A stretch of 45,229 nt of DNA from Acidobacteriota bacterium (GTDB lineage: Bacteria > Acidobacteriota > Polarisedimenticolia > J045), in assembly GCA_046331425.1 (NCBI GenBank), contig JAXLQU010000031.1:1-45229 (forward strand). The letters are read 5' to 3'. Within the stretch, counting starts at the first letter, position 1. Each line of letters begins with the position of its first letter. Positions 5,311 through 27,748 of the stretch are shown piece by piece. Both the position numbers and the translations under genes were made by a program. The notes under the pieces were generated by a model. That model was not told where the DNA came from and made no database searches. It saw nothing but the letters and a program-made list of their open reading frames with translations.

Positions 5311-6100
5311 CTGCGCTGCCGTGCCGCGCGAGTTGTTCGAGAGCGAGTTCTTCGGTCACGTCAAGGGCTCGTTCACCAGCGCCTTGCGCACTCGTGTCGG
5401 CCGTTTCGAGTTGGCGCACGGCGGGATGTTGTTGCTCGACGAGGTCGGCGAGATTCCGCAGGAGTTGCAGGCTAAGTTGCTTCGCGTGCTGCAAGAGGGT
5501 GAGTTCGAACGCGTGGGCGAAGAGCGCACGCGCAAGGTCGATGTCCGCGTGCTGGCGGCAACCCATCGCGATCTACGCCGCGACGCCGACGCCGGCCGTT
5601 TTCGAGCCGATCTTTACTACCGCCTGAGCGCGTTTCCAATCGAGGTTCCTCCGCTGCGCGAACGTCCCGAAGATGTACCGATTCTGGCCGAAGCGATTCT
5701 TGCCGCAGCGGCGCGTCGACTGGGTCGCAAGGCGCCGCGATTGACGCGTGCGGTGATGCAGCGATTGCAGGGTGACGCGTGGCCGGGGAATGTGCGCGAA
5801 CTTCAGCACGTGATCGAGCGTGCAGTGTTGACCTCGACAGGAGCGGCACTGGAAGTCGAAACGCTCGACGCGACACCCGCGCGAACGAGCGGTCAGCCGG
5901 TGACATCGTCCAAACGTCCAGTGCGCACCGCCGCCGAGTTACGTCAGATGGAAATCGACAACGTGAGGGCTGCGCTCTCGGCCGCAGATGGAAAGGTCTA
6001 CGGCAAGGGGGGTGCGGCCGAGTTGCTGGGGATGCGGCCGACCACACTCGCATCGCGCATGAAGGCGTTGGGATTGGACACGCGCAGCCTGCGGCGCTGA
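5279..6100 (+). pseudogene. sigma54-dependent transcriptional activator (NtrC family), N-terminally truncated (no receiver domain, no Walker A)
   Basis: The ORF starts inside the AAA+ sigma54 domain at ...[23 protein letters not shown] (the NCAA / ESELFGH region). It retains the GAFTGA-like loop (GSFTSA), LLLDEVGE (Walker B), [26 protein letters not shown] and a C-terminal Fis-type HTH. GESGTGKE and the receiver are absent. It overlaps the truncated hydrolase by 32 bp. Confidence 0.6.
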
Positions 6101-7816: not shown

Positions 7817-8015
7817 CGGGACCGGATGACCTGCCCCGCTCAACAAACCGACTCCTGACAACTAGCGCAACCACAGGCGTCGACTTCGGCGCTAGTGCAA
7901 GAGATCGCCAAGCATTTTGCACCAAGCGGACGCGCCCAGTTCTCGCGATTGCTAGGCACGAGAGCCAACACGTCGACGCTCCGGCAGCGCGCCTGTACAC
8001 GAGATCGTTGAAGAC

Positions 8016-8033
8016 GTAGCTACCGGTAGCTAC
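8016..8033. promoter_or_regulatory. 18-bp perfect palindrome GTAGCTACCGGTAGCTAC immediately upstream of the antitoxin start; putative autoregulatory operator
   Basis: Read directly: gtagctaccggtagctac is self-complementary and abuts the ATG at 8035/8044. TA operators typically overlap the promoter/start in this way. Coordinates are +/-1. Confidence 0.45.
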
Positions 8034-8043
8034 TATGCCGTGC

Positions 8044-8352
8044 ATGACGGAGATCAGGACAGTCGGCATCAAAGATCTCAAGAACAACCTCAGTGCCTAC
8101 CTGCGTGACGTGCGGAGAGGCGTGCGAATCCTCGTCTCTGACCGCGCCAGCGTGATGGCGGAAATCCACGAACCGGGCGTCGCGTACAGCGCGACGGGTG
8201 ACACACATCCCCTGCTCGAGGGCTGGGTCCGCTCCGGAGCCGTGACCTTGCCCACGCGCCCGAGAAGCCCTCTTCCTGATTCACCCGTCCAGTTGGCCGA
8301 GGGCACGGCGCAACGTCTACTCGACGCCGATCGAGGCGAAGGCCGCACGTGA
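8044..8352 (+). CDS. Type II antitoxin, Phd/YefM (prevent-host-death) family
   Basis: N-terminus TVGIKDLKNNLSAYLRDVRRGVRILVSDRASVMAEI is a typical Phd/YefM fold signature. The stop overlaps the downstream PIN gene start (GTGA). Confidence 0.6.
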   Translation: MTEIRTVGIKDLKNNLSAYLRDVRRGVRILVSDRASVMAEIHEPGVAYSATGDTHPLLEGWVRSGAVTLPTRPRSPLPDSPVQLAEGTAQRLLDADRGEGRT

Positions 8353-8761
8353 CAGCGCTCTGCGTCGAAACCTCGGCACTCCTTGCGTGGCTACTGGGCC
8401 AGCGAGGCTCTGCCGAGGCGAGGGCGGCGATCGACGGCGCAGAGTCCGTCGTCACCTCCACTCTGACTCTGTTGGAGATTGATCAGGCGTTGGCGTGAGG
8501 ACTCGCGGGGGCGAGCTACGTGAAGGCGACGTACATCGCCTGCGCGGACACGTCGCCCGCCAGCGAGCGACATGGATCGTGATGACGATCACCGAGGATG
8601 TGCTGAGTCGCGCCGCACGCGGATTCCCGATCGAGCCGGTGCGAACGCTGGATGCTCTCCACCTGGCGACCGCGCTCGCCTTTACTGCCGTGTTTCCCGA
8701 TCTCGAGATTTTGAGTCTCGACCGCCGCATTACGGACAACGCGCGCGCCTTGGGGTTGTAG
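8349..8761 (+). pseudogene. VapC-like PIN-domain toxin, disrupted (in-frame TGA at ~8487-8489, remainder continues in the +2 frame)
   Basis: Frame 0 from GTG 8349 reads VTALCVETSALLAWLLGQ...TLTLLEIDQALA* (PIN N-terminal half). ORF 8495..8761 in another frame reads ...ITEDVLSRAARGFPIEPVRTLDALHLATALAFTAVFPDLEILSLDRRITDNARALGL (PIN C-terminal half). Together this is a frameshift, or possibly a sequencing error. Confidence 0.6.
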
Positions 8762-8932
8762 CGCGATACATCGAGTACGCCGCGCGCTGACATCCAGCGG
8801 CAACACGCGCCTCAGCTCGACAGCGACAGGAAGAGATTCACCCGATGGACTCCGGAGGCTGATGCTGCGGGCATCGAGCGTGCGACGCATCGCGCTCCGC
8901 CCGCTGCCGGCAACCATCCGGCTCGAGCAACG

Positions 8933-9841
8933 CTAGGACCGAGTGGTGCTTGGATCGGTCCGGCCCAGTCGACGTTCGATTGCGCGCGCGAAGCGGCCAG
9001 GCGCGAGAGGGTGCTGAGCCAGGAACATCAGCGGCTCGAACACCTCGAGTTCCATCAACAAGAACTGCCCATCACGAATCACTCCATCGACGCGCGCATA
9101 GACCGGCAGTCCGGGAGTGGCAGCGATGCACGCGCGCGCTCCTTCGATCCACTCGGCTTGCACATCGACAGTTTCCGTCGTTCCTCCGAACTGGAACTGC
9201 ACGCGGTAGTCTCCCTCCTTGGGGCGCTTACAGATCGCGTGACTGAAGACACCATCGAAGAACAGCAGCGACAGCTCTCCCTCGCTCAGAATCTCGGGCA
9301 GGAACGGTTGGATCAAGAGGCCGCGATCTACCAGTGTCCGCGTGATGTCATCGCGATATCGATCGGCCTCGTCGAGTCGAAACCGGTGCGTGCCGTATGC
9401 TCCACCCGAGATCGTCGGCTTGACCACGATCTCCTCCCAGCCCTGTGCACGCGCGAGCGCGACGATGTCGGGGCGCTCGCCTTGCTGAACGACGATCGTG
9501 GGGACCAGCGAGACACCCGCCGCCGCCAGATCCTGGAGGTAACGCTTGTCGAAGTTCCAATCGAGTATTTCGCCCGCGTTGCACAGGCATACGCCGCTCG
9601 CGATTCGGGCTTGGAGCCAGGCGCGAAACTCCATGACACGCGCGAAGTAGTCCCACGGCGAACGAATCACCAGCGCATCGAACGCAAGCCAGTCGACGCT
9701 GGCGTCGCTCCAGATGGTGGGGCGAGAGTCGATCCCGATCTCGTCGAGCGCCGATACCAGCAGCAGATCGTCCTCATAGAGGTGCGGCAAGGCTTCACTG
9801 GTCACAAGCGCTACGCGCGGTCTTGCATTTGGTTTCTGCAT
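8933..9841 (-). CDS. ATP-grasp domain protein (RimK/glutathione-synthetase-like ligase)
   Basis: The 311-aa ORF has the ATP-grasp core (...EIVVKPTISGGAYGTHRF..., DGVIRDGQFLLMELEVFEP). Start set at Met10 (MQKPN) behind GGAGAG. Confidence 0.6.
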   Translation of the reverse strand: MQKPNARPRVALVTSEALPHLYEDDLLLVSALDEIGIDSRPTIWSDASVDWLAFDALVIRSPWDYFARVMEFRAWLQARIASGVCLCNAGEILDWNFDKRYLQDLAAAGVSLVPTIVVQQGERPDIVALARAQGWEEIVVKPTISGGAYGTHRFRLDEADRYRDDITRTLVDRGLLIQPFLPEILSEGELSLLFFDGVFSHAICKRPKEGDYRVQFQFGGTTETVDVQAEWIEGARACIAATPGLPVYARVDGVIRDGQFLLMELEVFEPLMFLAQHPLAPGRFARAIERRLGRTDPSTTRS

Positions 9842-15030: not shown

Positions 15031-15480
15031 CGCAAAACCCCCTCTGTGACGGTCGGTGCTGGCCTGCGAGACTGTTATCACTCGGTCCACGGCCGGCCGC
15101 GATCCGGCCCGGATTCTGGGTGAATCGGTCTCGCTTTGGGAATGACCTAGTCGCTGAGCGATCTTCAAACACCACTATACGGTTGACGGGACGTCGTTAA
15201 GGTGGGGCGGTTGGGTACTCCTTACCCGTCTCACGACCGGACTGTCACTCGTTGGCCATCTCTGCTCGTCCCGCTCCGGCCCATCCGCGCGGGCTTGCAA
15301 CCGGCGCCCAGGGGCTTTCCTTCCGGGTCGCAGCAGGGATGACCGAACGGTGCAACACCAACTTGATCGCTCTCTCGAACAGGCCTTCAGTCGCGTGATA
15401 CCTCTGGCCGAGTCGCGCATCACAACCGTCGTGGTTGCAACGGGCATCACAGCCTCGACGGCAACTCGGAGGTTTCGTTC

Positions 15481-17139
15481 ATGCACACTGGCTTTCGACA
15501 AAGCTCCTTGCTGCTGCTTTCCAATCAACGCCCACGGCGAATTGTGCTCGGCACATGGCTCGCCGCTTGTTCATTGCTCTCTCTCTCCTCCTCCTTCTCC
15601 GCGCCGGATCCCCCCTCCGGCATCCCCGACGCGATCGTCGACCTGGCCACATCGCAAGGTGTGAGCCAGGTCGGCGGCGCGTGGCGGTATGCGGATGCTC
15701 AGGTGGTGGACGTTGATTTCCGCGCGGCTGGGCCCGATCGCAAACCGAGCGGCGCCCCGAATCGAACCTACGACATCGCGCCGCATGCAGGCGGCGTGGA
15801 ATTCGATGATCGCGCTTGGCAAGTGCTCGACCCGCCCAACTTCGAGTCGCGACGCGGCAATGGGCGCGTCTCGTTCGCTTGGTTGCGCCTGAATCTGAGA
15901 ATCCCGGAGAAAGTTGGCGACTTCGTCACAGCCGGTTCCACCGCCGTGTTCGAAATCACCGTCGACGATTACGCCGAGGTCTGGCTCGATGGAAAGCTGC
16001 CGCGCGAGTTGGGGCAAAGCGGCGGCTCGATGATCGCCGGTTTCAACGTGCCCAACCGCTTGCAGGTTTCCGCGCGTGTGAAGCCGGGCGAGTCGCATCA
16101 GCTTGCCGTGTTCGCGATCAACGGCCCGATCAGCGATCCGCCCGCCAACTACATTTGGGTTCGTTCGGCGAAGCTGTTGTTCTACCGCACGCCTCGTGCG
16201 ATCGCACCGCGTGCTGTTCCGGTCGACGTGGTGCGGCTGGACCCCGCAGTCGACAGCATCGTTCCCAGGGACGCGACGCTCGAGAAGATCGCCGAAGGGT
16301 TTGCCTTCACCGAAGGGCCTGTTTGGGCCAAGGACGGGTCGCTGCTTTTCTCCGACCCCAACGAGAATCGAATCTACCGCTGGACCCCCAACGCACCGTT
16401 GACGGTCTTTCGCGACAAGAGTGGCTACGACGGCGCCGACATCGCCGAGTACGGTCAGCCCGGCAGCAACGGGTTGACCTTCGACAAGCAGGGAAGACTG
16501 ACGATCGATGAACATGGGCGACGCCGTGTCACGCGACTGGAGCCTGACGGTCGACTGACGGTGCTTGCCGATCGCTTCGAGGGCAAGCGTCTCAACAGCC
16601 CGAACGACTTGGTGTATCGCAGCGATGGCGCTTTGTACTTCACCGACCCGCCGTTCGGGTTGCCGAAGTTCCACGACGACCCTCGCCGCGAATTGCCTGA
16701 CTTCGACCTGTTTCTTTTGAAGGACGGCGTGCTTCAGAAGGTGGTCAGCGATCTGCGCGGACCCAATGGTTTGGCCTTTTCACCTGATGAGAAATATCTT
16801 TACGTCACCAATTGGGACGATACGAAGAAGTGGGTCACACGCTACCCGGTCGACGCCGATGGCACGCTCGGCAAAGGCTCGGTCTTCTTCGATATGGCCG
16901 CTGCTCCAGAAGCGGAAGCGCTCGACGGCATCAAGCTCGACAAACAAGGGCATCTGTTTGTCTCGGGACCAGGCGGTGTCTGGGTGATCAGCGCCGAGGG
17001 GAAACATCTCGGCACGATCAGAGGCCCGGAAGCGCCCGCCAACTTTGCTTGGGGCGATAGCGACGGCCGCACGCTGTACATGACCGCGCGCACCGGGCTG
17101 TACCGGATGCGCTTGTCCGTAACAGGTATTCGACCCTGA
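15481..17139 (+). CDS. SMP-30/gluconolactonase/LRE-like beta-propeller lipoprotein with extra N-terminal beta-sandwich domain
   Basis: Lipobox LAAC after RRIVLGTW. The C-terminal 300 aa show FTEGPVWAKDGSLLFSD, NGLAFSPDEKYLYVT and GIKLDKQGHLFVS (SGL six-bladed propeller). The N-terminal ~230 aa form a galactose-binding-like region. RBS GGAGG upstream. Confidence 0.75.
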   Translation: MHTGFRQSSLLLLSNQRPRRIVLGTWLAACSLLSLSSSFSAPDPPSGIPDAIVDLATSQGVSQVGGAWRYADAQVVDVDFRAAGPDRKPSGAPNRTYDIAPHAGGVEFDDRAWQVLDPPNFESRRGNGRVSFAWLRLNLRIPEKVGDFVTAGSTAVFEITVDDYAEVWLDGKLPRELGQSGGSMIAGFNVPNRLQVSARVKPGESHQLAVFAINGPISDPPANYIWVRSAKLLFYRTPRAIAPRAVPVDVVRLDPAVDSIVPRDATLEKIAEGFAFTEGPVWAKDGSLLFSDPNENRIYRWTPNAPLTVFRDKSGYDGADIAEYGQPGSNGLTFDKQGRLTIDEHGRRRVTRLEPDGRLTVLADRFEGKRLNSPNDLVYRSDGALYFTDPPFGLPKFHDDPRRELPDFDLFLLKDGVLQKVVSDLRGPNGLAFSPDEKYLYVTNWDDTKKWVTRYPVDADGTLGKGSVFFDMAAAPEAEALDGIKLDKQGHLFVSGPGGVWVISAEGKHLGTIRGPEAPANFAWGDSDGRTLYMTARTGLYRMRLSVTGIRP

Positions 17140-17164
17140 CGACCGCACGACATACGGAGAACTT

Positions 17165-18019
17165 ATGCGCACTCGACTGGCTGTACTCGCTGTGCTCGCC
17201 ACCCTAGCGTCCTCCGCCTGGGCGCAGATTGGCGAGAAGAAAGTCCTCTCGCTCGAGGCTGCCAAGCAGGTGGTTGCTGCGGCGGTCCGCGAGGCCAACA
17301 AGGACAATCACACCGCTGCAATCGCGATTGTCGACGACGGCGGCAACCTGATGTTGCTCGAACGGCTCGACAACACATTCGCTGCCGGGCCGTTGATCTC
17401 GTATGGCAAGGCGCGCACCTCGGCGCTTTTCAAGAAGCCGACGCGCGTCTTCGAGGAGATCATCAAGAACGGCCGCACGCCGATGGTGGCACTCAACGAC
17501 TTCACCCCGCTGCAAGGCGGCGTACCGCTCGAGATCGATGGCCAGATCGTGGGGGCCATCGGCGTCTCCGGCGCGGCCAGCGCACAGCGCGATGAAGAGG
17601 TGGCACTCGCGGGAGCAGCCGCACTGGCAACCGTCCCGAAGAACGTAAGCGTCCCGGCAGTGGAGTACTTCGAGCGCAAAGCAGTCTCGGCGGCATTTGC
17701 CAAAGGCCAGCCGTTGCTCGAAGTCAGCGACTACAAGGTGCATGCGAGCCATCGCGACAAGGCCGGCCTGGCGGAGGTCCACGCACGTGAGACCGATGTG
17801 ATCTACGTGGTCGATGGGCAGGCGACGTTCGTTACCGGCGGGACGGTTGTTGAAGCCAAAGAGACGGCGCCGTTCGAAACACGGGGCCGCGGCATCGATG
17901 GCGGTGACGTACGCAAGCTTGCCAAAGGAGATGTGGTGGTGGTTCCCAATGGAACGCCGCATTGGTTTCGTGACGTCAACGGCGCGTTCGACTACTTCGT
18001 CGTCAAGGTGATCGACTGA
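17165..18019 (+). CDS. Secreted GlcG/HbpS-like (DUF336) heme-binding domain fused to a C-terminal cupin domain
   Basis: Signal peptide MRTRLAVLAVLATLASSAWA. DUF336 region: AAIAIVDDGGNLMLLERLD...GVPLEIDGQIVGAIGVSGAASAQRDEEVA. Cupin region: VIYVVDGQATFVTGG...GDVVVVPNGTPHWF. Confidence 0.7.
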   Translation: MRTRLAVLAVLATLASSAWAQIGEKKVLSLEAAKQVVAAAVREANKDNHTAAIAIVDDGGNLMLLERLDNTFAAGPLISYGKARTSALFKKPTRVFEEIIKNGRTPMVALNDFTPLQGGVPLEIDGQIVGAIGVSGAASAQRDEEVALAGAAALATVPKNVSVPAVEYFERKAVSAAFAKGQPLLEVSDYKVHASHRDKAGLAEVHARETDVIYVVDGQATFVTGGTVVEAKETAPFETRGRGIDGGDVRKLAKGDVVVVPNGTPHWFRDVNGAFDYFVVKVID

Positions 18020-18063
18020 ACCCACACCGCGCCTCGCTACGGTACTGCTCCGATTCGCGCTCC

Positions 18064-18093
18064 GAGCCCGCCGCCGGCGGGCTTTTTCTTTGT
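18064..18093 (+). terminator. Rho-independent terminator (GCCCGCCGCCGGCGGGC hairpin followed by TTTTTCTTT)
   Basis: Read directly, 45 nt after the stop of the GlcG-cupin gene. It separates that gene from the DUF692 gene. Coordinates are +/-2. Confidence 0.55.
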
Positions 18094-18129
18094 CTGAAAC
18101 GGGGCGCGCTCGCGCTGCATCCAACCGGC

Positions 18130-18981
18130 ATGAAACAGCACACCATTACCGGCGCAGGAATCGGTTTGCGAAAAGAGCACCACGACACGGTGCTCGCAGA
18201 AAAACCACCGGTCGCCTGGTTCGAAGTGATCTCCGAGAACTTCATGGTCGACGGCGGCAAGCCGATCCAGGTTCTAGACCGTGTGCGACGCGACTACCCG
18301 GTGGTGATGCACGGCGTGTCGTTGTCGATCGGCTCCGATGATCCACTCGACAAAGACTACCTGCGCAAACTCGGGCAGCTCGAAAAGTGGCTGCAACCGT
18401 CACTGGTTTCCGATCACTTGTGCTGGACTTCAGCCGGCGGCCACAACAGCCACGACTTGCTTCCGCTGCCGCGCACCGAAGCGACGCTGCACCGTGTGGT
18501 CGAGAAGATCGGCCAAGTGCAAGACCTGCTCGGCAGGCAATTGCTGCTCGAGAACATCTCCAGTTACCTCGAGTTTCAGCAGTCGACCTTGGGCGAAGCC
18601 GAATTCTTGGCCGAGGTCGCTGTGCGTGCCGACTGTTTGATACTGCTGGACGTCAACAATCTCTACGTCAACACCCGCAATCATGGCTTGGATCCGTTCA
18701 CCTACATGAACTGGCTTCCGGCGGAACGGGTTGCGCAGTTCCACCTGGCGGGCCATCAGGATCTCGGCGATGTCGTGATCGACACTCACGATGGCCCAGT
18801 CTGCACCGATGTGTGGGACCTGTATCGGCGCGCCGTACGGCGCTTCGGCGCAGCACCGACACTGATCGAATGGGACGCCAACATTCCACCGCTTCAGACC
18901 GTGCTGGCTGAAGCACACCGCGCCGATGCCGCCGCTCGCGAAGCGCTGATGGAGCTCAACCATGTGCAGCGCATTGCCTAA
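18130..18981 (+). CDS. bufB: DUF692 family (MbnB/BufB-like, TIM-barrel di-iron) RiPP-modifying enzyme
   Basis: Hallmark DUF692 blocks: GIGLR..H, WFEVISENFM, YPVVMHGVSLSIGS, VSDHLCWT, HDLLPLP.TE and LLLENISSYL. Confidence 0.85.
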   Translation: MKQHTITGAGIGLRKEHHDTVLAEKPPVAWFEVISENFMVDGGKPIQVLDRVRRDYPVVMHGVSLSIGSDDPLDKDYLRKLGQLEKWLQPSLVSDHLCWTSAGGHNSHDLLPLPRTEATLHRVVEKIGQVQDLLGRQLLLENISSYLEFQQSTLGEAEFLAEVAVRADCLILLDVNNLYVNTRNHGLDPFTYMNWLPAERVAQFHLAGHQDLGDVVIDTHDGPVCTDVWDLYRRAVRRFGAAPTLIEWDANIPPLQTVLAEAHRADAAAREALMELNHVQRIA

Positions 18982-19786
18982 GCCGGTCAGCGATCTGGCT
19001 GTGGCCCAACGGAAGTTCTTGCGCGACTTGTCCGGCCTCGAATCGCGGGACGCCGCCTCACGCGCAGAACAGTTCTGTGCGCCACCGGCCGGCGATGTCG
19101 AGCGACGCTGGCACGTCTACACCTCGGGTTACTTCGTGCGGTTACGCGACGTGCTGGCGCAGGACTACCGCGCCATCGCGCGGATTGCTGGTGACGATGC
19201 CTTCAGCGGTTTGGTCGGGCGTTATCTGATGGCTTGCCCACCGCGTCGCTACGACTTGGCGATGGCCGGTGAGCGCTTCCCCAGCTTTGTCGGCAGCGAC
19301 GCACTGAGCTCGAGCCTGCCCTTCATCCCCGACCTCGCGCAGCTCGAGTGCGCTGTTTCCGACTGCTTCATCGCCGCCGAGCCTCAGCCGCTGACCTGGA
19401 AGGGGCTGCGAGAGATGCCGTCAAGCCAAGCGGCCGAGCGCAGCATTGCGCTTCAGCCATCGGCACGCGTGCTTCGCTCGATCTGGCCGCTACGCGACTT
19501 GTGGCAGACCGCCTTCACACCCGAAGACGATGAGATCGATATCGACTTGAGTGAGAAACCACGTTGCTTTCTCGTGCATCGCAACGAGGGTGAGATCTTC
19601 GTGAGAGAGATCGACGACGAGCTCGCCACATTGCTTCAAGCCGCGGAACAGCAGGGCAACACACTCACAGGACTCGCCGCCTCGCTATCGCTCGGTGACG
19701 AGCCCGAGGATGTACGCAGCTTCTTGATGTTGATGCAGCGCGCTCTGGCGCTATCGCTTTTCACTCTCAACCCCGTCGCCACTTGA
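18962..19786 (+). CDS. bufC: DUF2063 family protein (MbnC/BufC-like partner of DUF692)
   Basis: The WHVYTSGYFVRLRDVLAQDY...GDDAF..LVGRYL...P...YDL...GERFPSFV pattern is typical of DUF2063. The start overlaps the end of bufB by 20 nt. Confidence 0.7.
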   Translation: MCSALPKPVSDLAVAQRKFLRDLSGLESRDAASRAEQFCAPPAGDVERRWHVYTSGYFVRLRDVLAQDYRAIARIAGDDAFSGLVGRYLMACPPRRYDLAMAGERFPSFVGSDALSSSLPFIPDLAQLECAVSDCFIAAEPQPLTWKGLREMPSSQAAERSIALQPSARVLRSIWPLRDLWQTAFTPEDDEIDIDLSEKPRCFLVHRNEGEIFVREIDDELATLLQAAEQQGNTLTGLAASLSLGDEPEDVRSFLMLMQRALALSLFTLNPVAT

Positions 19787-19815
19787 ATGGACGACACACA
19801 CTCTCTGGAGGCTCG

Positions 19816-20136
19816 ATGAACGGAAAGTCGAAGTTGTTTTTGGCAGCATTGGCTGGTGCACTCGCTCTCCCCTCGCTCGCGCTGGCCGAGGACGCCAAGC
19901 CGGGTACCGACAAAGATGCCGGCAAGGTGCCTTGCTGGGGCATCAACAAGTGCAAGGGCGTTGGCGACTGCGGTGCCGATGGCTGCCGTCACAGCGGTTG
20001 TCACGGTTCCAACGGCTGCAACGGCAGCGGCTTCATTCGCTTGGAAGCGGAAACCTGTCTGAAGATCGTGGGTGGCCGCCTGACCAAGGCTGCCGAGCCG
20101 GCCAAGGTCGAAAAGAAGGGCAAGGACAAGAAGTAA
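19816..20136 (+). CDS. bufA: DUF2282-type (bufferin-like) RiPP precursor peptide with Sec signal peptide and 7 Cys
   Basis: MNGKSKLFLAALAGALALPSLALA|EDAKPG..., then a core VPCWGINKCKGVGDCGADGCRHSGCHGSNGCNGSGFIRLEAETCLKIVGGRL that matches the DUF2282 pattern (C[YW]G...NxC...HSxC...TC.KI.GG). Lys-rich tail. GGAGG 7 nt upstream of the ATG. The ORF track begins at TTG 19783. Confidence 0.75.
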   Translation: MNGKSKLFLAALAGALALPSLALAEDAKPGTDKDAGKVPCWGINKCKGVGDCGADGCRHSGCHGSNGCNGSGFIRLEAETCLKIVGGRLTKAAEPAKVEKKGKDKK

Positions 20137-20218
20137 TCAGATCGTTGCTGGGACGGTTGGCGCCGCGCGTCATCCGTCCCTTGCTTCTGGTGCCGCGCCG
20201 CGACCGCGCGAGCAGTGG

Positions 20219-22024
20219 CTAGATCAATCCCACATGCCGCATCAACTCCAGGGCGTTGCTCTTGGAAACAACACCCTCGTGCAGGCGATAGTCGAAGCGC
20301 ATCTCACCGCCTTCCAGGTGATCGACAAAGTGCACGTTCCGAACATCGCTCCCCAACGAGGCGGCGCTCTCGGTGAGCGCTAGGTCATGCGTGGTCAATA
20401 GGCCAATCGCTCCAAGCGTGTGCAACTCGCGCATCAGCGCTTCGGCTCCCAGCTTGCGATCGTGCGAGTTGGTTCCCGACAGCAACTCATCGATCAGAAA
20501 CAGAAGCGGAGATCCGTCGCGAGCGATCTGCACGATCGTCCGCAAACGATCGAGTTCCGCCAAGAAGCGTGAGCGGCCATCCAACAGCGAGTCTTGCGCT
20601 CGCAACGACGCCCCGAGCGAAAGCGGCGTGAGCGTCAGGCTTGCGGCGCGCACGGGTGACCCTGCTTGGGCCAGCACCGTATTCACACCGATCGAGCGAA
20701 GCAGCGTGCTCTTCCCCGACATGTTGGATCCGCTGACGATTAGCAGGCGTGTGGTTGCCCCGAGTCGCACATCGTTGTGGACGCAGCGTTCGAGCGGTAG
20801 CAGCGGGTGCCCGAGCTTTTCCGCCTCGAATCGCGGGGCGCCGCTCACCAATTGCGGGTAGACCATTTCCGGCTGCTCGAATGCGAACGCCGCCAAAGCG
20901 GAAAGCGCTTCCAATTCGCCCGCCGCCTCGAACCAGTCATGCACCGCTGGGCCGTAACGAGCGCGCCACGTTTCCACAGCCAATGCATGCTGCGTGGCCC
21001 AAAATAATGGCAGCGACACGGGAAGAAAGATCTGATTGAGACGCCAATCGAGGCGATCGAGCGTGGCCGCCAACTGCGCGATCGCGCGCGACGCCGGCGC
21101 CTCGCCCGCGATGCGCCGCTGCAATACCACCAGCGCCGGCGACGCAAACGGCTCCACCTCGATTCGTTGCAGCAGTCCCGACAGTACCTTCAGTTCGGGA
21201 GCGGCCCCCTCCGCCGCTGTCAATACCGCTTCGACGCGCGGACGCAGGTACGTCCCCAGGAATCCAGATGCGATCAACACCGTTGGACCACACCACCATG
21301 GAATCGAGGAGATCGAGCCAAAGGACCACTGCGACCATGACGCCGTCATCAACAAGAGCGCTGCGAGGTTGGCCACAACGGCGAACCCCACCGGCACGCG
21401 CCAAGCGCTCAGATCGGCCTTGCGAGCACGACCCCAACCCTCCAAGAGATCAGCATGCACGCGGCGGGTCGCCTCCTCGCCCAACAGCGCCAGTGCCTCG
21501 CGCAACTCGACGCGCGGCGTGAGCTCTTGAATTGCGAGTTGTCGCGCGCGCACCTCGTCCGGCGCACTCGGGGTCGACAGCCAGCGGGCGAGCGCCCGCC
21601 GACCAGCATTCGTTCGGGTGCTCGCCAATCGTTCGAACAACGAACCGCGCCCATACAGGTCAAGGTCGAGTGCAAACGGGTGCGCCGCCTCGAAAAGGTC
21701 GTTGCCATCGTCGCCGGTACCGGGCCACTCCCCAGCCAAACGGGCCAAGCCTGCTTCGTAGAAACGTACCGCGCGGGCCGCGCGTCGAGCCGCCTGCAGC
21801 GCGCGATCGTGAATCAGCACTGTCGTTGCGAACGCAACGACGGCCGCGCCGACCCACCAGGGTGAGATTCGGCCCGAAGCGGCCAGGGCCAGCGCCCCGA
21901 TCCCCGCTATGAGTAAGGCCAACCTCGATCCCACGAACAGTCGGTCGCGGCCGGCCATGGCGGCCTCGACCCCGCGCCAGTGATCGCGGCGACGTTCGTA
22001 TTCGTGCTGAGGTGTGTGATTCAT
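20219..22024 (-). CDS. MutS-family ATPase (domain V ABC-type ATPase only; no mismatch-binding or connector domains; N-terminal TM helices)
   Basis: C-terminal IVSGSNMSGKSTLLRSIG (Walker A), ...LLFLIDELLSGTN (Walker B/D-loop) and TTHDL (H-loop). Hydrophobic segments in the N-terminal half. Start at Met95 (MNHTPQ); an alternative is Met85 at 22054. The ORF track begins at 22306. Confidence 0.65.
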   Translation of the reverse strand: MNHTPQHEYERRRDHWRGVEAAMAGRDRLFVGSRLALLIAGIGALALAASGRISPWWVGAAVVAFATTVLIHDRALQAARRAARAVRFYEAGLARLAGEWPGTGDDGNDLFEAAHPFALDLDLYGRGSLFERLASTRTNAGRRALARWLSTPSAPDEVRARQLAIQELTPRVELREALALLGEEATRRVHADLLEGWGRARKADLSAWRVPVGFAVVANLAALLLMTASWSQWSFGSISSIPWWCGPTVLIASGFLGTYLRPRVEAVLTAAEGAAPELKVLSGLLQRIEVEPFASPALVVLQRRIAGEAPASRAIAQLAATLDRLDWRLNQIFLPVSLPLFWATQHALAVETWRARYGPAVHDWFEAAGELEALSALAAFAFEQPEMVYPQLVSGAPRFEAEKLGHPLLPLERCVHNDVRLGATTRLLIVSGSNMSGKSTLLRSIGVNTVLAQAGSPVRAASLTLTPLSLGASLRAQDSLLDGRSRFLAELDRLRTIVQIARDGSPLLFLIDELLSGTNSHDRKLGAEALMRELHTLGAIGLLTTHDLALTESAASLGSDVRNVHFVDHLEGGEMRFDYRLHEGVVSKSNALELMRHVGLI

Positions 22025-22109
22025 CGGACCTGAAGGGTAACCCAGCCGATTCATGCCTGCGTTTTGAAACCATTGGCAGAGGCTGTGCATCCTACGCCAG
22101 GACCCCCGA

Positions 22110-22694
22110 GTGGGCAGCCAAGAGGACGGCATGGAACCGACGATCGACCCGAACTGGGAGAACACACTGGCATCGCGAGAGGCAGTGCGGGTTCTGCGCT
22201 GGGCCGACGAGGCGATTCGCGAGCGTGGGTCGTTTCGAATCGCGCTCGGGGGTGGAGCCAACCTGCGTCCCTTGTTGGCTGCGATCGCGTTGGAGAGTGA
22301 GCACACCCGCGCGGATTTCCACCGCTGGCATGTCTACTGGTGCGAGGAAAGACACGTCCCTCCCTATCACCGCGACAGTTGCTATCGACTGGCCGAGCAA
22401 GCGCTGTTGGGCCGCGTGCCGGTGCTTCCCGAGAATTTGCATCGCATTCGCGCCGAACATCGCGATCCGCATGAAGCGGCTCGCAGCTATGAGTTGCTGC
22501 TGCGCCGCAGCTTCGCGATGTCGGCCGGCGATCTGCCGCAGTTCGATGCGGTCGTGGTTGGCAGCCGAGCCCAGGGAACGGTGATCGGCCTCACGGGGGC
22601 GGTCTTGAACGTTGCGCGCCACGTTCTGACGTGGGGCGATGCGCCACCTTTGCCCGCGCTGCCCTCACTTGCCGGTGTGAGGACGCAGGCGTGA
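22110..22694 (+). CDS. 6-phosphogluconolactonase/glucosamine-6-P deaminase-family protein (divergent C-terminus)
   Basis: RIALGGGAN...W..VHVYWCEERHVPP.H.DS(C)YRL pattern resembles Pgl (IALSGG...vhvf.gDERcVP..h.dSN). The catalytic DGHTAS region is not conserved (QGTVIGLTG). The stop overlaps the sigma-factor GTG (GTGA). Confidence 0.45.
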   Translation: MGSQEDGMEPTIDPNWENTLASREAVRVLRWADEAIRERGSFRIALGGGANLRPLLAAIALESEHTRADFHRWHVYWCEERHVPPYHRDSCYRLAEQALLGRVPVLPENLHRIRAEHRDPHEAARSYELLLRRSFAMSAGDLPQFDAVVVGSRAQGTVIGLTGAVLNVARHVLTWGDAPPLPALPSLAGVRTQA

Positions 22695-23374
22695 CCGCAA
22701 ACGACCGCCACGCGGAGACACCGCGCGAGCGTGATAGCCTGGCGCCTGTGTGGAACCCCGTGAAGAACTCGGCGCCATCGGCCCAGCCGTCAAGCGAGGC
22801 CGATCTGATCCAGCGCCTTCGAGCCGGCGATGAGCGCGCCTTCGAGCAGGTGGTTCGAACGCACTCGGGACGCTTGCTCTCCGTCGCACGCCGCTTCATG
22901 CGCAACGACGACGATGCGTGCGATGTCTTGCAGGAAGCGTTTATTTCGATGCATCGCGCGATCCACTCGTTCGAGTCGGGCGCGCGGCTCTCCACCTGGC
23001 TGCACCGCATCACCGTCAATTGCGCGCTGATGAAGATTCGCTCGCGCAAGTGCCGGCCCGAGATCGCGATCGACGACCTGATGCCGCGCTTCACCGAGGA
23101 CGGTCATCACGTCGACCCACCCTGCCCCTGGGCTGAAGACACCGACGTCTCCATGGCCCGCGAGCAAACGCGCACGATGGTCCGCGCGGCGATCGATCGC
23201 TTACCCGAGAACTATCGAACCGTGCTGTTGCTCCGCGACATCGAGGAACTCGACACTGAGGAGACAGCCCAGGTCCTGGGAATCAGCGCCAATGCCGTGA
23301 AGGTCAGGTTGCATCGCGCTCATCAAGCGCTGCGCACGATGATCGACACGCACTTCAAGGAAACACTCCGATGA
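22691..23374 (+). CDS. ECF (sigma-70 group IV) sigma factor
   Basis: Region 2 (DLIQRLRAGDERAFEQVV...DVLQEAFISMHRA...WLHRITVNCALMKIRSR) and region 4 (LPENYRTVLLLRDIEELDTEETAQVLGISANAVKVRLHRAHQALR). The GTG start is inferred from overlap with the upstream stop. An alternative start is further downstream. Confidence 0.75.
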   Translation: MTANDRHAETPRERDSLAPVWNPVKNSAPSAQPSSEADLIQRLRAGDERAFEQVVRTHSGRLLSVARRFMRNDDDACDVLQEAFISMHRAIHSFESGARLSTWLHRITVNCALMKIRSRKCRPEIAIDDLMPRFTEDGHHVDPPCPWAEDTDVSMAREQTRTMVRAAIDRLPENYRTVLLLRDIEELDTEETAQVLGISANAVKVRLHRAHQALRTMIDTHFKETLR

Positions 23375-23613
23375 CTTGCCGAGAGTTTGCCGAGTTCATT
23401 GATTCCTTCATCGGTGGTGGGCTTTCCAACGATGAAGCGCAGGAGTTTCACCGCCACTTGGCGGTGTGCAGCGATTGCGTCAACTACATCGACACCTATC
23501 GGCGCACGATCGCCATGAGCAAGCGTGCCTTCGAGTCGATGCCCGAAGCCTCGGTGCCCGAGGATGTGCCTGAAGATCTGGTGAAAGCGATCCTGGCATC
23601 CCGCAAGCCTTGA
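23371..23613 (+). CDS. Short cytoplasmic ZAS (zf-HC2, HxxxCxxC) anti-sigma factor
   Basis: 80 aa, no TM segment. It contains C3, and H29-LAV-C33-SD-C36 (HRHLAVCSDC) is the zinc anti-sigma motif. ATGA overlap with the sigma-factor stop. Confidence 0.65.
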   Translation: MTCREFAEFIDSFIGGGLSNDEAQEFHRHLAVCSDCVNYIDTYRRTIAMSKRAFESMPEASVPEDVPEDLVKAILASRKP

Positions 23614-23657: not shown

Positions 23658-26318
23658 GTGGCGAGCGCGACTCCGGCAGGCGTAGCATCCTGCGTTGCTG
23701 TGTTGCCGACACTCGCATCTCGGCCTGGGCGAGGACCTCAAACGACTCCTTCACCTTTCATCGATCGACTTCGACGTTGGCTCGGCCCCGTCTTCGCCGC
23801 ATCGCTGTTCGGGGCGGCACTCTGGGCGATTCATCGCGAGCTGGGACCGTATCATCACGGGCAAATCGTCGAGGCGCTGCAGCAGATACCGGCGTCGCGC
23901 ACACTGCTCGCGCTGCTCCTGACGGTGACCAGCTATCTGCTCCTGACGCTCCTCGATCAGGTCACGCTTCGTGCGATCCACGTAACGCTTCCCTATCGCC
24001 GCGCCAGCTTTGCCTCGCTCGTGGCCTACGCCTTCAGTCATAGCGTCGGCTTTGCCGCGGTCACCGGCGCGGCAATCCGATACCGCTTGTATTCGGCCTG
24101 GGGACTTTCAGCGTCAAAGATCGCGCAGTTTCTGGTCTTGGGAACCACTGCTTTCTGGCTCGGTTTTGCGCTGGTCGGCGGCGTTTGGTTTGTCAAGGAC
24201 GCGAGCGACGTAAGCGAGAGTTCTCTTCTTCGAACGCCTCGCGCGACGTTCTGTCTTGGACTGCTGCTGTTGTCGCTGCTCTCGATCTATCTGGTGGTGT
24301 GCCTTCGGCGGCGCAGGTTCCGCGTTCTGCCCTGGCGCGACTACGATCTCCCGCTGCCGTCGCCGTCATTGGCGATTCTGCAAACCGGCATTTCAGCACT
24401 CGACTGGATCGCGAGTGCTGCAGTGTTGTGGGTCCTGCTCGATCAACCCGAGATGTCGTTGTGGCGATTCCTTGGCGTGTTTCTGCTCGCTCAAGTGGCG
24501 GGAGTGATCAGTCAGATACCGGGCGGGCTGGGTGTGTTCGAATCGTTGGTGCTGACGTTGACCGGGGATGCCCACCCCACGCCTGCGATCGCAGCGGCGT
24601 TGATCTCGTATCGGTTGCTCTATTACGTGCTGCCGCTCGTCACCGCTGCCGCGCTCTTCAGCGCACGTGAGACCTTCGCTCGCTGGCCGAGGGTCGAGCG
24701 GGTCTCGCGAGCAATGGGGCGATGGGCTTCGGGCGTGATTCCCACGCTGCTGACTGTGACCACCTTCGCTGCTGGAATCGTCCTGCTCGTGTCGGGCGCG
24801 ACACCGGCGGAGAGCTGGCGTCTGAAGTGGCTGCGCGATGTCGTCCCGCTTCCTGTGATCGAACTCTCGCACTTTCTCGGCAGCCTGACCGGAGCCGGTC
24901 TCCTGCTCTTGGCTCGCGGCCTTCAACAACGCCTCGATGCTTCCTACACGCTGACCGCGCTGTTGCTTGCCGCCGGGGCAGGCTTTTCACTCGCCAAGGG
25001 CGTGGACTATGAGGAGGCGTTGTTCTTGGTCGGCATGTTGGCGCTGTTGTTGCCGTGTCGCCGCCACTTCTATCGACGCGCATCGCTGTTCGCCGAACCG
25101 TTCACGCCGGGCTGGCTCGTGGCCGTAGCGGCCGTGATCGCCGCCACCGCTTGGATCAGTGTGTTCGCGCACAAACATGTCGAGCTCGCTGGCGATTTGT
25201 GGTGGACATTCGCATTCAGAGGCGATGCCTCGCGCACGCTCCGCGCGCTGACCGGTGTGGTGGCACTCGTTGCCGTGATCGGTACGGCGCGATTGCTGCG
25301 GCCCGCACCGGCCCGGCCTCAGCTCCTCACCAGCGACCAGAAACCGCGACTGCTTCAGGCGCTTGCGAACTGCTCCGACACGTCGGCCAACTTGGCGTTG
25401 CTGGGCGACAAAGCGGTGCTCTTCAGCCCAACCGGGAACAGCTTCGTGATGTACGCGGTCGAGGGGCGGAGTTTCGTAGCACTCGGCGATCCTTCGGGGC
25501 TCCAGAGCGAGATCGCGGACTTGGCCTGGCGGTTTCGCGAGTTGGCCGACCGGCATGGCGGCTACACCGTGTTCTATGAAGTCTCCGCTAGCCGATTACC
25601 GATGTACCTCGATATGGGTTTGGCGCTAGTCAAGCTAGGCGAGGAGGCGCGGGTCGCGTTGGATGAGTTCTCGATTCAGGGCAACTCCGGCAAGTCGTTT
25701 CGCAGCGCCATCAACAGCATGACCAAGGACGGATGCAGTTTCGAGATCGTCGCGACGGCCGACGTTCCGGCTCTTCTTCCCACGCTTCGTGCGATATCGG
25801 ACGCCTGGTTGGCGAGCAAGAACACGCGGGAGAAGGGGTTCTCACTGGGGTACTTCGACGAGGAGTATTTGGCGAACTTTCCGATGGCGGTGGTCCGTCA
25901 GCACGGCAGGCCGATTGCGTTCGCGAACATTTGGGCCGCCTCTGACGGCGGTGAGTTGTCGGTCGATCTGATGCGGTTTGCCGAGGATGCGCCCAAGGCA
26001 ACGATGGACTTTCTGTTCTTACAGACGATGCTGTGGGGCAAGGAGCGGCACTACCGGTGGTTCAACTTGGGAATGGCACCGTTGTCCGGACTGGAGGCGC
26101 ATCGGTTGGGGCCACTCTGGGGGCGCGTGGCGTCGTTTGTCTTCCGACACGGCGAGCACTTCTACAACTTCCAGGGCTTGCGTCAGTACAAGCAAAAGTT
26201 CTCCCCGGATTGGCAGCCGCGATATCTGGCGTTTCCGGGTCGTCTTACGTTTGCTCGAGTGTTGCTCAACGTTGCTTCCTTGACTTCCGGGGGTTTGAGA
26301 GGCGTGGTGACCAAATGA
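23658..26318 (+). CDS. mprF: Aminoacyl-phosphatidylglycerol synthase / flippase (MprF/LpiA family: LPG_synthase_TM + DUF2156 lysyl-tRNA-dependent transferase domain)
   Basis: About 14 TM helices over ~540 aa, then the C-terminal DUF2156-like domain (...FVMYAVEGRSFVALGDPSG...YTVFYEVS...YLDMGLALVKLGEEARV...FSIQGNSGKSFRSAIN...). Confidence 0.8.
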   Translation: MASATPAGVASCVAVLPTLASRPGRGPQTTPSPFIDRLRRWLGPVFAASLFGAALWAIHRELGPYHHGQIVEALQQIPASRTLLALLLTVTSYLLLTLLDQVTLRAIHVTLPYRRASFASLVAYAFSHSVGFAAVTGAAIRYRLYSAWGLSASKIAQFLVLGTTAFWLGFALVGGVWFVKDASDVSESSLLRTPRATFCLGLLLLSLLSIYLVVCLRRRRFRVLPWRDYDLPLPSPSLAILQTGISALDWIASAAVLWVLLDQPEMSLWRFLGVFLLAQVAGVISQIPGGLGVFESLVLTLTGDAHPTPAIAAALISYRLLYYVLPLVTAAALFSARETFARWPRVERVSRAMGRWASGVIPTLLTVTTFAAGIVLLVSGATPAESWRLKWLRDVVPLPVIELSHFLGSLTGAGLLLLARGLQQRLDASYTLTALLLAAGAGFSLAKGVDYEEALFLVGMLALLLPCRRHFYRRASLFAEPFTPGWLVAVAAVIAATAWISVFAHKHVELAGDLWWTFAFRGDASRTLRALTGVVALVAVIGTARLLRPAPARPQLLTSDQKPRLLQALANCSDTSANLALLGDKAVLFSPTGNSFVMYAVEGRSFVALGDPSGLQSEIADLAWRFRELADRHGGYTVFYEVSASRLPMYLDMGLALVKLGEEARVALDEFSIQGNSGKSFRSAINSMTKDGCSFEIVATADVPALLPTLRAISDAWLASKNTREKGFSLGYFDEEYLANFPMAVVRQHGRPIAFANIWAASDGGELSVDLMRFAEDAPKATMDFLFLQTMLWGKERHYRWFNLGMAPLSGLEAHRLGPLWGRVASFVFRHGEHFYNFQGLRQYKQKFSPDWQPRYLAFPGRLTFARVLLNVASLTSGGLRGVVTK

Positions 26319-27748
26319 TGCGAATGACGTTCGGATTGTTGCTCTTGGCGTCGAGTTTCGTAGCGAGCGCAGGCACGCAAATGTCAAACAACGAGTCGCT
26401 GACATTCGGTGCGTTTGGCAAGGTCGCGCTGTATCGCCCAGCCTCTGCCATCGAGGATGTCGTGCTATTCGTTTCCGGAGACGGCGGCTGGAATCAAGGC
26501 GTGGTCGACATGGCAAAGCAACTGGTCTTGATGAATGCGCTCGTGCTGGGCATCGACATGCCGCGATTTGAAACCGCATTGAAGGCTGAGAAAGGCGCAT
26601 GCGCCTACCCTGCCGCCGAGTTCGAAGCGTTGAGTCAGTACGTCCAAAAGAAGCTCGACTTGCCGGACTACAAGACCCCGATTTTGGCGGGCTACTCTTC
26701 AGGCGCAACTCTGGTGTACGCGCTCTTGGCGCAAGCACCGGGCGGAACCTTCGCCGGCGGGTTGAGCCTCGGCTTTTGCCCCGACCTGGAGGTCACCAAA
26801 CCACTGTGCAAAGGAAGTGGCCTAACGTTCGTGCCGTTGCCCAAGAAGAATGGCTTCGTCTTCGATGCCAACCCTGCACTCCCCGCTCCGTTTCACGTGC
26901 TGCAAGGCGACATCGATCAGGTCTGTCAGCCCGAGGCGACACGCACCTATCTTTCCAAGATCCCAGCGGCAAAACTGTATTGGCTCCCGAAGGTCGGACA
27001 CGGCTATTCGGTCCCCAAGAACTGGTTGCCTCAGTTCCGCGACGCCTATCGTGATCTAAGAACGGTGAGCGCTCCCGATCGAACGCAAGCACACACGTCG
27101 CTCGGTACGACGGGCGCATCGACGCCATCAGTCGATGATCTGCCGCTGGTCGAGGTGCCGGCCGTCGGGGAAGTGCAGGACAGCGTGGCGGTGATTCTCA
27201 CCGGAGATGGCGGCTGGGCCGGACTCGACAAGCAAGTTGCCGGCGCGTTGGCCGCGCGCGGAATCCGCTGTATCGGCTGGAATTCCCTGCGCTACTACTG
27301 GACCGCGCGGACACCCGACTCAGCCGCGGCCGATCTCGCCCGCATCGTGCTACTGATCCAAGCGCAGTCGCCGGGCGCGAAGGTCCTGCTGATTGGCTAC
27401 TCGCTGGGCGCGGATGTCTTGCCGTTCCTGATCTCGCGTCTCTCCGAGACGCAACGGATGATGATCGCATCGGCCACGTTCATCGCGCCTTCGTTGTCGG
27501 TGGCGTTCGAGTTTCATCTCTCCAACTGGACAGGCGGCTCGCAGGCGGACGCCAAGCCGACGCTCCCTGAGATGCAAAAGCTCGCAGGCATGAAGCTGTT
27601 GTGCCTGTACGGAACCGACGACGAAGACTCGCTTTGCCCCAAGCTTCCGGCAGAACTGGCCAGCGTTCAGAAGATGCCGGGTGGACATCACTTTGGTGGT
27701 GATTACGAGGCCGTTGCCTCTCGGATCATTGCGGCAACCCAGCCGTAG
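26315..27748 (+). CDS. acvB: AcvB/VirJ-like periplasmic aminoacyl-PG hydrolase (tandem VirJ alpha/beta-hydrolase domains)
   Basis: Signal peptide MMRMTFGLLLLASSFVASA. Two related halves each carry a ...V(L/I)..(S/T)GDGGW... block (VVLFVSGDGGWNQGV and VAVILTGDGGWAGLD), plus GYSSGA and GYSLGA nucleophile elbows. Start at Met95 of the track ORF, overlapping the mprF stop (ATGA). This is the known lpiA-acvB gene order. Confidence 0.7.
   Translation: MMRMTFGLLLLASSFVASAGTQMSNNESLTFGAFGKVALYRPASAIEDVVLFVSGDGGWNQGVVDMAKQLVLMNALVLGIDMPRFETALKAEKGACAYPAAEFEALSQYVQKKLDLPDYKTPILAGYSSGATLVYALLAQAPGGTFAGGLSLGFCPDLEVTKPLCKGSGLTFVPLPKKNGFVFDANPALPAPFHVLQGDIDQVCQPEATRTYLSKIPAAKLYWLPKVGHGYSVPKNWLPQFRDAYRDLRTVSAPDRTQAHTSLGTTGASTPSVDDLPLVEVPAVGEVQDSVAVILTGDGGWAGLDKQVAGALAARGIRCIGWNSLRYYWTARTPDSAAADLARIVLLIQAQSPGAKVLLIGYSLGADVLPFLISRLSETQRMMIASATFIAPSLSVAFEFHLSNWTGGSQADAKPTLPEMQKLAGMKLLCLYGTDDEDSLCPKLPAELASVQKMPGGHHFGGDYEAVASRIIAATQP

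Follow-up and report, generated by a model that had tools for sequence, protein, structure and literature searches.

What kind of peptide is encoded by a short gene with seven cysteine codons in the 45,229-nt contig JAXLQU010000031.1 of an Acidobacteriota bacterium (GTDB lineage Polarisedimenticolia, J045; GenBank assembly GCA_046331425.1), and how many of these cysteines become metal ligands? The whole stretch, read on the forward strand, is referred to as the window in the following. An earlier note, written from the letters of the window, had recognised the gene as coding for a cysteine-rich precursor of a peptide that is made by the ribosome and modified after translation (RiPP) that is exported by Sec, is adjacent to a gene pair of the DUF692 (multinuclear non-heme-iron oxidase, MNIO) and DUF2063 families and has more cysteines than the usual family pattern. 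These features are supported by the present analysis (export by inspection of the signal peptide; seven cysteines versus six in Buf2), whereas the proposed membership in the DUF2282 family is not. Judged by profile match and alignment, the gene, designated bufA, is a Buf2/BufA2-type precursor with one inserted cysteine. Most probably its product is the precursor to a bufferin of the Buf2 type ('captophorin'), a small RiPP that binds copper in the periplasm and whose internal cysteines would be converted to thiooxazoles.

19816..20136 (+), stop codon included: bufA, bufferin-2-type precursor of 106 aa with seven cysteines, assigned by its match to the BufA2 hidden Markov model
19807..19811 (+): Shine-Dalgarno sequence GGAGG, 4 nt ahead of the bufA ATG, read from the sequence
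19816..19887 (+): Sec signal peptide predicted by inspection (residues 1-24, cut after ALA)
19933..20058 (+): cysteine ladder C40 to C81, with C40/C81 as putative disulfide pair and C46, C52, C57, C62 and C68 as candidate thiooxazole sites
19984..19992 (+): clade-specific insertion Cys57-Arg58-His59, which carries the extra cysteine, from alignment A1 against the six-Cys sisters
20104..20133 (+): lysine-rich C-terminal tail KVEKKGKDKK, read from the sequence

The bufA product consists of the signal part MNGKSKLFLAALAGALALPSLALA and the mature part EDAKPGTDKDAGKVPCWGINKCKGVGDCGADGCRHSGCHGSNGCNGSGFIRLEAETCLKIVGGRLTKAAEPAKVEKKGKDKK. By inspection, the signal peptide has the n-region MNGKSK, the h-region LFLAALAGALALPSLALA and an AxA motif with cleavage between ALA and ED; the n-h-c pattern and the AxA site are kept across all aligned homologues. 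The cysteines are located at residues 40, 46, 52, 57, 62, 68 and 81 with a spacing of 5,5,4,4,5,12, and both the core string and the glycine-rich seven-Cys ladder quoted in the earlier note were exact. Of the 82 residues of the mature peptide, 15 are Gly and 13 are Lys, and its calculated average mass without modification is 8445.6 Da. When the whole 45 kb window was searched in six frames, bufA was the only Cys ladder within a credible open reading frame (ORF), the four other ladder matches being shorter and Arg-rich. A protein identical to the bufA product (P0001) is annotated in a metagenome-assembled genome of Acidobacteriota, and locus L010 from another uncultured Acidobacteriota genome is 99% identical. 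A chance ORF was ruled out by conservation, synteny and the Shine-Dalgarno sequence of bufA, a metallothionein-like protein with unmodified cysteines by the obligate linkage to BufB and BufC.

The best and only family match of bufA was the NCBIfam model NF050166 ('BufA2 family periplasmic bufferin-type metallophore'; E=4e-14, 52.6 bits), the curated cutoff of which is 60 bits. Eight members of the seven-Cys clade reached 51.6 to 60.2 bits with this model, and the nearest six-Cys relatives from Polarisedimenticolia and related Acidobacteriota (46-55% identity) exceeded the cutoff with 72-75 bits. According to the alignment, the shortfall of the seven-Cys peptides can be explained by a three-residue insertion, with which it coincides. 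The Pfam model of DUF2282 (PF10048.14, gathering score 22.4 bits) did not match bufA even at E<=10 and none of 31 clade members at E<=1, whereas two PGAP-annotated DUF2282 plasmid proteins, used as positive controls with the same tool, scored 89 and 69 bits. No DUF2282 gene was found in a first set of 89 loci. The newer version PF10048.16 gives weak matches for the clade in precomputed tables, and 358 'Cys-Lys' precursors were picked up by the DUF2282 model in published supplementary data; Buf1 and Buf2 are thus remote relatives. Comparison of the clade profile (A1) with nine annotated DUF2282 proteins (A3), taken from annotated plasmids, by hhalign gave a probability of 96.5% (E=9.5e-10).

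In the hhalign comparison, CysI-IV of DUF2282 pair with C40, C52, C62 and C81, the first, third, fifth and seventh cysteine of bufA, with corresponding motifs at the third (GDC and NDC) and the fifth (SGC-HG and HSC-AG), and C40 and C81 are aligned to the disulfide-forming CysI and CysIV. The second and sixth cysteines lie opposite non-Cys columns and the fourth falls into a gap. The previously proposed correspondence of the first, second, fifth and seventh cysteines to the DUF2282 positions therefore holds for the first, fifth and seventh; the remaining position belongs to the third and not to the second. Likewise, 'three additional cysteines' is a correct count relative to DUF2282 and an incorrect one relative to Buf2, where the second and sixth are canonical and C57 alone is extra. 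All six Buf2 cysteines of bufA are in register with those of the BufA2 sisters and of 48 six-Cys representatives (pattern C-x5-C-x5-C-x6..11-C-x5-C-x12/13-C).

How widespread is the seven-Cys pattern? A single-sequence search yielded 53 clusters at 90% identity, 46 of them with exactly the spacing 5,5,4,4,5,12, and a profile search gave 3281 matches at E<=1e-5. Cysteines were counted in 119 proteins, in which the matches of the first search were pooled with the listed profile matches (120 of 3281): 85 have seven cysteines, eight have the long loop without the middle cysteine, and 26 are canonical six-Cys proteins. The spacing is identical in at least 85 protein clusters, and a pattern repeated in so many clusters of homologues is not due to chance. 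Seven-Cys carriers are all Acidobacteriota where classified; the 15 genomes with the pattern in a one-genome-per-species collection bear the labels Thermoanaerobaculia, Holophagales or unclassified Acidobacteriota, and two are given only as 'bacterium'. Since the whole clade collapses into one cluster at 50% identity, the lineage is a shallow one. Among the 85 listed members, CWG (CYG in canonical Buf2) and Cys-Lys at the second cysteine are invariant or nearly so, and the fifth cysteine is part of a C-H-G-S/T-N motif with His in 78/85. The lysine-rich tail, which had been thought unusual, is common: it is kept clade-wide by composition and not by sequence (28% Lys; at least four tail lysines in 76/85 listed members) and is also found in other Buf2 lineages. 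We found no mention of a seven-Cys Buf2 in the literature. Independent expansions of the Buf2 ladder were seen in L052 (6007..6195; spacing 5,5,7,7,5,12), in P0104 (5,5,5,6,5,12) and in P0094, which has a nine-Cys Buf2-like ladder with seven consecutive C-x5-C steps.

The extra cysteine is part of a Cys-Arg-x insertion in the loop between CysIII and CysIV of Buf2, where the seven-Cys peptides read CGADG-CRH-SGCHGSN and the six-Cys sisters CGGKG----HSCAGEN. This loop varies in length across the Buf2 family (6, 7, 8 or 11 residues). Gly-Cys-Arg at the inserted cysteine is invariant in 85/85 listed clade members. Among 19 distinct DNA sequences the cysteine is encoded by TGC 16 times and by TGT three times, a synonymous change. 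Selection on the extra cysteine is indicated by the identical spacing, the synonymous codon variation and the Arg that always follows it. A Cys-Lys motif characterises the substrates of the Buf2 type, and the Cys-Arg of the insertion resembles it (PMC13097082). C57 is a candidate for a fifth modified site because it shares the Gly-rich loop of the modified cysteines, is followed by a basic residue and is conserved through synonymous codons. Provided that the system is a bufferin, we regard the chances that C57 is modified as about evenly balanced.

18130..18981 (+): bufB, MNIO (DUF692) bufferin maturase of 283 aa, assigned by Pfam MbnB_TglH_ChrH and NCBIfam MNIO_BufB
18962..19786 (+): bufC, DUF2063/PME-type-1 partner of 274 aa, with a 20-nt overlap with bufB

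The two genes ahead of bufA code for the pair that would serve such a peptide. BufB matched Pfam MbnB_TglH_ChrH (PF05114) with 365 bits and NCBIfam MNIO_BufB (NF050167) with 378 bits (cutoff 310); on the MbnB equivalog TIGR04159 it remained below the cutoff (54.5 versus 325 bits). In 79/79 relatives no change is seen at its residues H61, H96, E141, D174, N177, H205, D218, H220, E247 and D249, and the eight through H220 are identical in the alignment to MbnB (7tcr), which stops short of E247/D249. We take these residues to correspond to the iron ligands and the catalytic Asp (base) of MbnB, and from the conserved metal site BufB looks competent. BufC matched Pfam DUF2063 (PF09836) at residues 16-110 with 51.2 bits (cutoff 27.2); with HvfC of NCBIfam the match was weak (39 bits against a cutoff of 142). 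A gene for a BufB-type MNIO and a DUF2063 gene are linked to the precursor in every related locus that has that stretch, and in every such locus with B-C-A order the bufC homologue separates the precursor gene from that of the MNIO. Among plasmid-borne MNIOs, the one closest to BufB of the window is encoded on a Thiothrix subterranea plasmid (L092, 56% identity); ahead of it (2118..2402) lies an unannotated gene for a six-Cys Buf2-like lipoprotein (signal ...LAGC) that is recognised neither by Pfam nor by the record annotation.

In the window, bufB, bufC and bufA follow each other on one strand in the order B-C-A. The order bufABC has been described as strictly conserved (PMC12452194), and the Acidobacteriota B-C-A loci contradict this. 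MNIO-DUF2063-precursor was the order in every seven-Cys locus examined, in every orderable recovered six-Cys locus labelled Vicinamibacteria, Polarisedimenticolaceae/-colia or Marinacidobacterales (L003, L032, L040, L043-L045, L052, L054, L064, L070, L075, L081, L083), and in every orderable recovered locus labelled Thermoanaerobaculia or Holophagales. Loci from other phyla have A-B-C order (Myxococcota, Omnitrophota, Planctomycetota, Binatia, delta- and gamma-proteobacteria). Terriglobia appear to keep A-B-C-DoxX, as their Buf2 clusters have consecutive accessions in this order (PMC12452194 Table S2), and the rearrangement is thus not phylum-wide. One survey took its initial precursor set only from genes ahead of the MNIO gene (PMC12452194), and a published taxon table lists 69 Acidobacteriota clusters, none of them from Thermoanaerobaculia (PMC13097082). 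A second MNIO and DUF2063 pair in A-B-C order is present ~2 kb past the seven-Cys precursor in L014, L013, L017, L018, L019 and L021. In L014 this second system comprises an MNIO gene (8273..9136) and a gene for a putative 155-aa precursor (7738..8205) with a 12-Cys C-x5-C ladder (CKGMNSCKGKGGCKAGDNGC...), a precursor of a different type. L005 and L006 have two tandem seven-Cys precursors (P0013, P0038; L005 5351..5659 and 5700..6008).

How many cysteines would be modified? BufB and BufC are necessary and sufficient for conversion of internal cysteines to 5-thiooxazoles (-4.03 Da each), and the Sec signal peptide of bufferins, which the modification does not require, is cut where predicted (PMC11626156). 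In Buf1 (four cysteines) CysI and CysIV are unmodified and disulfide-linked and CysII and CysIII are modified; in Buf2 (six cysteines) CysI and CysVI are unmodified and disulfide-linked and the four central cysteines are modified. Buf1 confers protection from copper stress and binds copper 1:1 with 2N2S coordination (PMC11626156). By analogy, BufB, together with BufC, its DUF2063 partner with a presumed RRE, would oxidise internal cysteines of the precursor to 5-thiooxazoles in the cytoplasm; the precursor would then be exported via Sec and its 24-residue signal peptide removed. A disulfide between C40 and C81 presumably acts as a staple of the small fold. C46, C52, C62 and C68 are the four predicted canonical sites, with C57 as a candidate fifth, and the thiooxazole sulfur and nitrogen donors, probably together with the conserved His63, would chelate periplasmic Cu(I)/Cu(II) and thereby buffer copper stress. 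In this reading the insertion most likely contributes a fifth thiooxazole site, modification of C57 being the least certain element. Gene identities, family relationships, the conserved seven-Cys pattern, the gene order and the conserved catalytic residues follow from the sequences, whereas chemistry, disulfide, export and copper binding are deduced from homology. As the terminal cysteines are unmodified and disulfide-linked in the two characterised bufferins, at most five sites would be modified in the peptide of the window. Seven thiooxazoles, the upper limit given by the earlier note, are very unlikely, C40 and C81 being equivalent by homology to these terminal cysteines. Nor would the valency be higher than in known members: fontiphorin already carries seven thiooxazoles (PMC13097082), Buf2 proteins with 12 cysteines are known (PMC12452194), and P0094 has its nine-Cys ladder.

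Several findings weigh against the reading of bufBCA as a Buf2-type bufferin system with C57 as a fifth site. The bufA score stays below the curated BufA2 cutoff, and the gene order of the window differs from the published bufABC. A DoxX gene is absent from the cluster, all large ORFs within ~5 kb belonging to other families; an NrsF-type regulator was not found in the cluster, nor was a copper-responsive regulator identified adjoining bufBCA. The buf2 cluster of C. vibrioides likewise lacks DoxX; in the related locus L007, DoxX and a zf-HC2 protein are encoded upstream of the cluster. AlphaFold2 models of the mature peptide from 31- and 119-sequence alignments had low confidence (pLDDT 60 and 53); they are loosely compatible with the published fold of two strands and a short helix (C40 on the first strand, a short helix at C81), and at this pLDDT the fold and the proximity of C40 and C81 are without independent support. 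A sequence-profile search for solved structures related to the precursor found none. As regards C57, nine long-loop relatives do without the extra cysteine (the eight of the 119 pooled proteins and P0054), so that C57 is not essential. In P0046 and in the 'SATGRREDG' subclade, which have a 9-residue loop as well, its site is occupied by Thr or Arg. In a rough neighbour-joining tree, built from the short cores, the long-loop peptides stand together and apart from the six-Cys sisters; at the low resolution of this tree, the nine long-loop sequences without the cysteine fall into a subclade of eight and the singleton P0046 within the seven-Cys crown. No clade-specific change was found at the residue that follows the catalytic Asp of BufB: it is Ala in the window and A/D/E/G/S/T across the family. 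An Asp at the BufB specificity position is reported to be in contact with the Lys of the substrate.

The alternative that survives best accepts the bufferin-2 system and assumes that C57 is not a substrate of BufB. The peptide would then carry the four canonical thiooxazoles, and C57, as a free thiol(ate), could serve as an extra soft ligand, as a redox-sensitive residue or as the partner in a labile or intermolecular disulfide. Relatives with Thr or Arg at this site indicate that it is dispensable, the reported specificity position of BufB has not changed in a clade-specific way, and flanking residues set the selectivity of thiooxazole-forming MNIOs (PMC13097082). Moreover, if the C40-C81 disulfide is assumed, an odd number of cysteines (five) remains, which cannot all pair. 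However, C57 shares the Gly-rich loop context of the modified cysteines, a basic residue invariably comes next, as at the Cys-Lys sites, and every internal cysteine of Buf1 and Buf2 is modified (PMC11626156). We consider an unmodified C57 possible and yet rather doubtful.

A second alternative concerns the genes upstream of bufB.

17165..18019 (+): fusion of HbpS-like and cupin domains with a signal-peptide-like N-terminus (Pfam HbpS-like 110 bits, Cupin_2 31 bits)
15481..17139 (+): SMP-30/gluconolactonase-like (SGL) protein with a signal-peptide-like N-terminus (Pfam SGL 134 bits)
18064..18084 (+): terminator-like hairpin with a 9-bp stem (7 GC pairs) followed by the T-run TTTCTTTGTC, between the HbpS-like/cupin gene and bufB

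The SGL protein carries an N-terminal domain of ~270 aa without family assignment. Homologues of both genes lie 5' of most seven-Cys loci and of none of the six-Cys B-C-A loci; their relative order is swapped between L007 and the window. The seven-Cys clade might be functionally diverged, with another metal, a multinuclear cluster or joint action with the HbpS-like/cupin and SMP-30-like neighbours. A TonB-dependent receptor gene follows the precursor directly in L001 (6487..8643) and L005 (6198..8369), a placement that recalls the uptake genes of methanobactin, and its presence in some genomes would fit the handling of redox or haem stress or the uptake of a metallophore. Correlated changes around the ligand loop (CYG to CWG, HSC-AG to SGC-HG) and the MerC-Buf fusions, from which it is clear that metals other than copper can be served by bufferins (PMC12452194), also point in this direction. 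However, in the window the strong terminator-like hairpin parts the neighbours from bufB, they are absent from some seven-Cys loci (L005, L011), and the clade would share the core ligand chemistry of copper-binding relatives. The HbpS-like/cupin and SGL genes are clade-associated neighbours of doubtful membership in the bufferin system. We regard a functional divergence of the clade as quite improbable; the related proposal that the seven-Cys lineage has another nuclearity or specificity of its metal site, or acts jointly with the HbpS-like and SMP-30-like proteins, seems slightly less so and is still unlikely. If it were true, a Cu(I) cluster or a site for another soft metal could arise from five thiooxazoles, unlike a simple copper buffer.

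The weakest explanation, a DUF2282 (Buf1-type) peptide with three inserted cysteines, thiooxazoles at all seven and a valency above that of known members, can practically be dismissed, since the remote homology, the weak PF10048.16 matches and the sum of seven minus four on which it draws are opposed by the missing PF10048.14 match, by BufA2 as the best match, by the unmodified terminal cysteines of both characterised bufferins and by the seven thiooxazoles already present in fontiphorin.

We return to the Buf2-type bufferin reading and to the surroundings of its genes. The hairpin at 18064..18084 suggests that bufBCA is transcribed apart from the two upstream genes; as it leaves ~35 bp for a promoter, bufBCA may use read-through or an unconventional promoter. 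A sigma-70 promoter scan of 15100..20400, which excludes promoters of the extracytoplasmic function (ECF) type, found nothing.

20150..20180 (+): GC-rich hairpin after bufA, a possible terminator, from RNA folding
20219..22306 (-): MutS2-like gene, convergent with bufA

Folding of 20130..20225 gave -47.5 kcal/mol (z = -3.2 versus shuffles); the hairpin has a weak U-tract and was not called by a consensus terminator scan. Past the MutS2-like gene, 2.5 kb downstream of bufA, an ECF sigma factor (22631..23374) and a zf-HC2 anti-sigma factor (23371..23613) are encoded. These are followed by an MprF-type lysyl-phosphatidylglycerol synthase (23658..26318) and a VirJ/AcvB-like hydrolase (26033..27748); as the two ORFs overlap by ~285 bp, one start codon is probably miscalled. 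At ~13 kb from the bufferin genes, the minus strand (950..4786) codes for a 1278-aa beta-helix protein with a Pfam Cu-binding_MopE match (44.7 bits), possibly a second copper-related gene of the window.

No larger group of MNIO-modified RiPPs is known than the bufferins (captophorins), whose role as a bacterial defence against copper has been recognised recently. Published surveys describe Buf2 precursors with six or twelve cysteines, and a sizeable, almost entirely uncultured lineage of soil bacteria (Acidobacteriota) departs both from these numbers and from the bufABC order. The present system is not a new kind of system; it is a previously undescribed but modest variant, a conserved seven-Cys sub-lineage in which the operon is rearranged and has accessory neighbours of its own. 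That the lineage is a functionally distinct subclass is unlikely; its marks would be the inserted Cys-Arg without exception, the changes to CWG and C-H-G-S-N, the lysine-rich tail, the B-C-A operon and the HbpS-like/cupin and SMP-30-like neighbours, with a TonB-dependent receptor or tandem precursors in some genomes. With its seven-Cys, Cys-less long-loop and six-Cys sister members, the lineage represents a natural experiment on an added ligand site, its modification and the metal stoichiometry. Genome mining should inspect both flanks of the MNIO gene for precursors.

Among known systems, methanobactin (MbnA/MbnB/MbnC) shares with the window an MNIO with the same conserved metal-site residues, which in methanobactin acts on cysteines of a ribosomal peptide to give copper ligands. 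It differs by its oxazolone-thioamide chemistry, by the partner MbnC in place of a DUF2063 protein, by a leader with dedicated export and by its role in copper uptake, in which it acts as a secreted chalkophore and has MbnT/MbnE-type partners. Fontiphorin, oxazolin (HvfA) and gonophorin also depend on an MNIO and PME1 pair, which in their case makes multiple 5-thiooxazoles for copper handling; unlike the window peptide, they are built on EGKCG repeats ('Lys-Cys') and belong to another precursor cluster and another MNIO sub-cluster. Bufferin 1/DUF2282 (PF10048, BufA1) comprises remote homologues, likewise small Sec-exported proteins with the same enzyme pair, in which the first and last cysteines are equivalent to those of the window peptide and CysII and CysIII correspond to its third and fifth. 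In contrast to the window peptide, which the Pfam model misses, DUF2282 proteins have four cysteines (C-x10-C-x6/7-C-x20-23-C), and their clusters usually contain DoxX and often SigF/NrsF.

The closest system is bufferin 2 of Caulobacter vibrioides (BufA2/B2/C2, CCNA_02999-03001), whose family Buf2 equals BUF_6/12Cys, NF050166 and the 'Cys-Lys group' of captophorins; 12-Cys proteins account for 10% of Buf2 (PMC12452194). The window differs from bufferin 2 by one extra cysteine (Cys-Arg-x in the CysIII-CysIV loop, seven in all), by the order B-C-A instead of A-B-C, by a score of 52.6 bits under the cutoff of 60, by CWG for CYG and a conserved His shifted to after CysV, and by its lysine-rich tail and the clade-specific HbpS-like and SGL neighbours. 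It shares with bufferin 2 the Sec signal peptide (in the window by inspection), the ladder C-x5-C-x5-C-loop-C-x5-C-x12-C, rich in Gly, with a C-terminal motif of the CLKIxGGxL type after it, the adjacent BufB-type MNIO with its DUF2063 partner and a cluster without DoxX.

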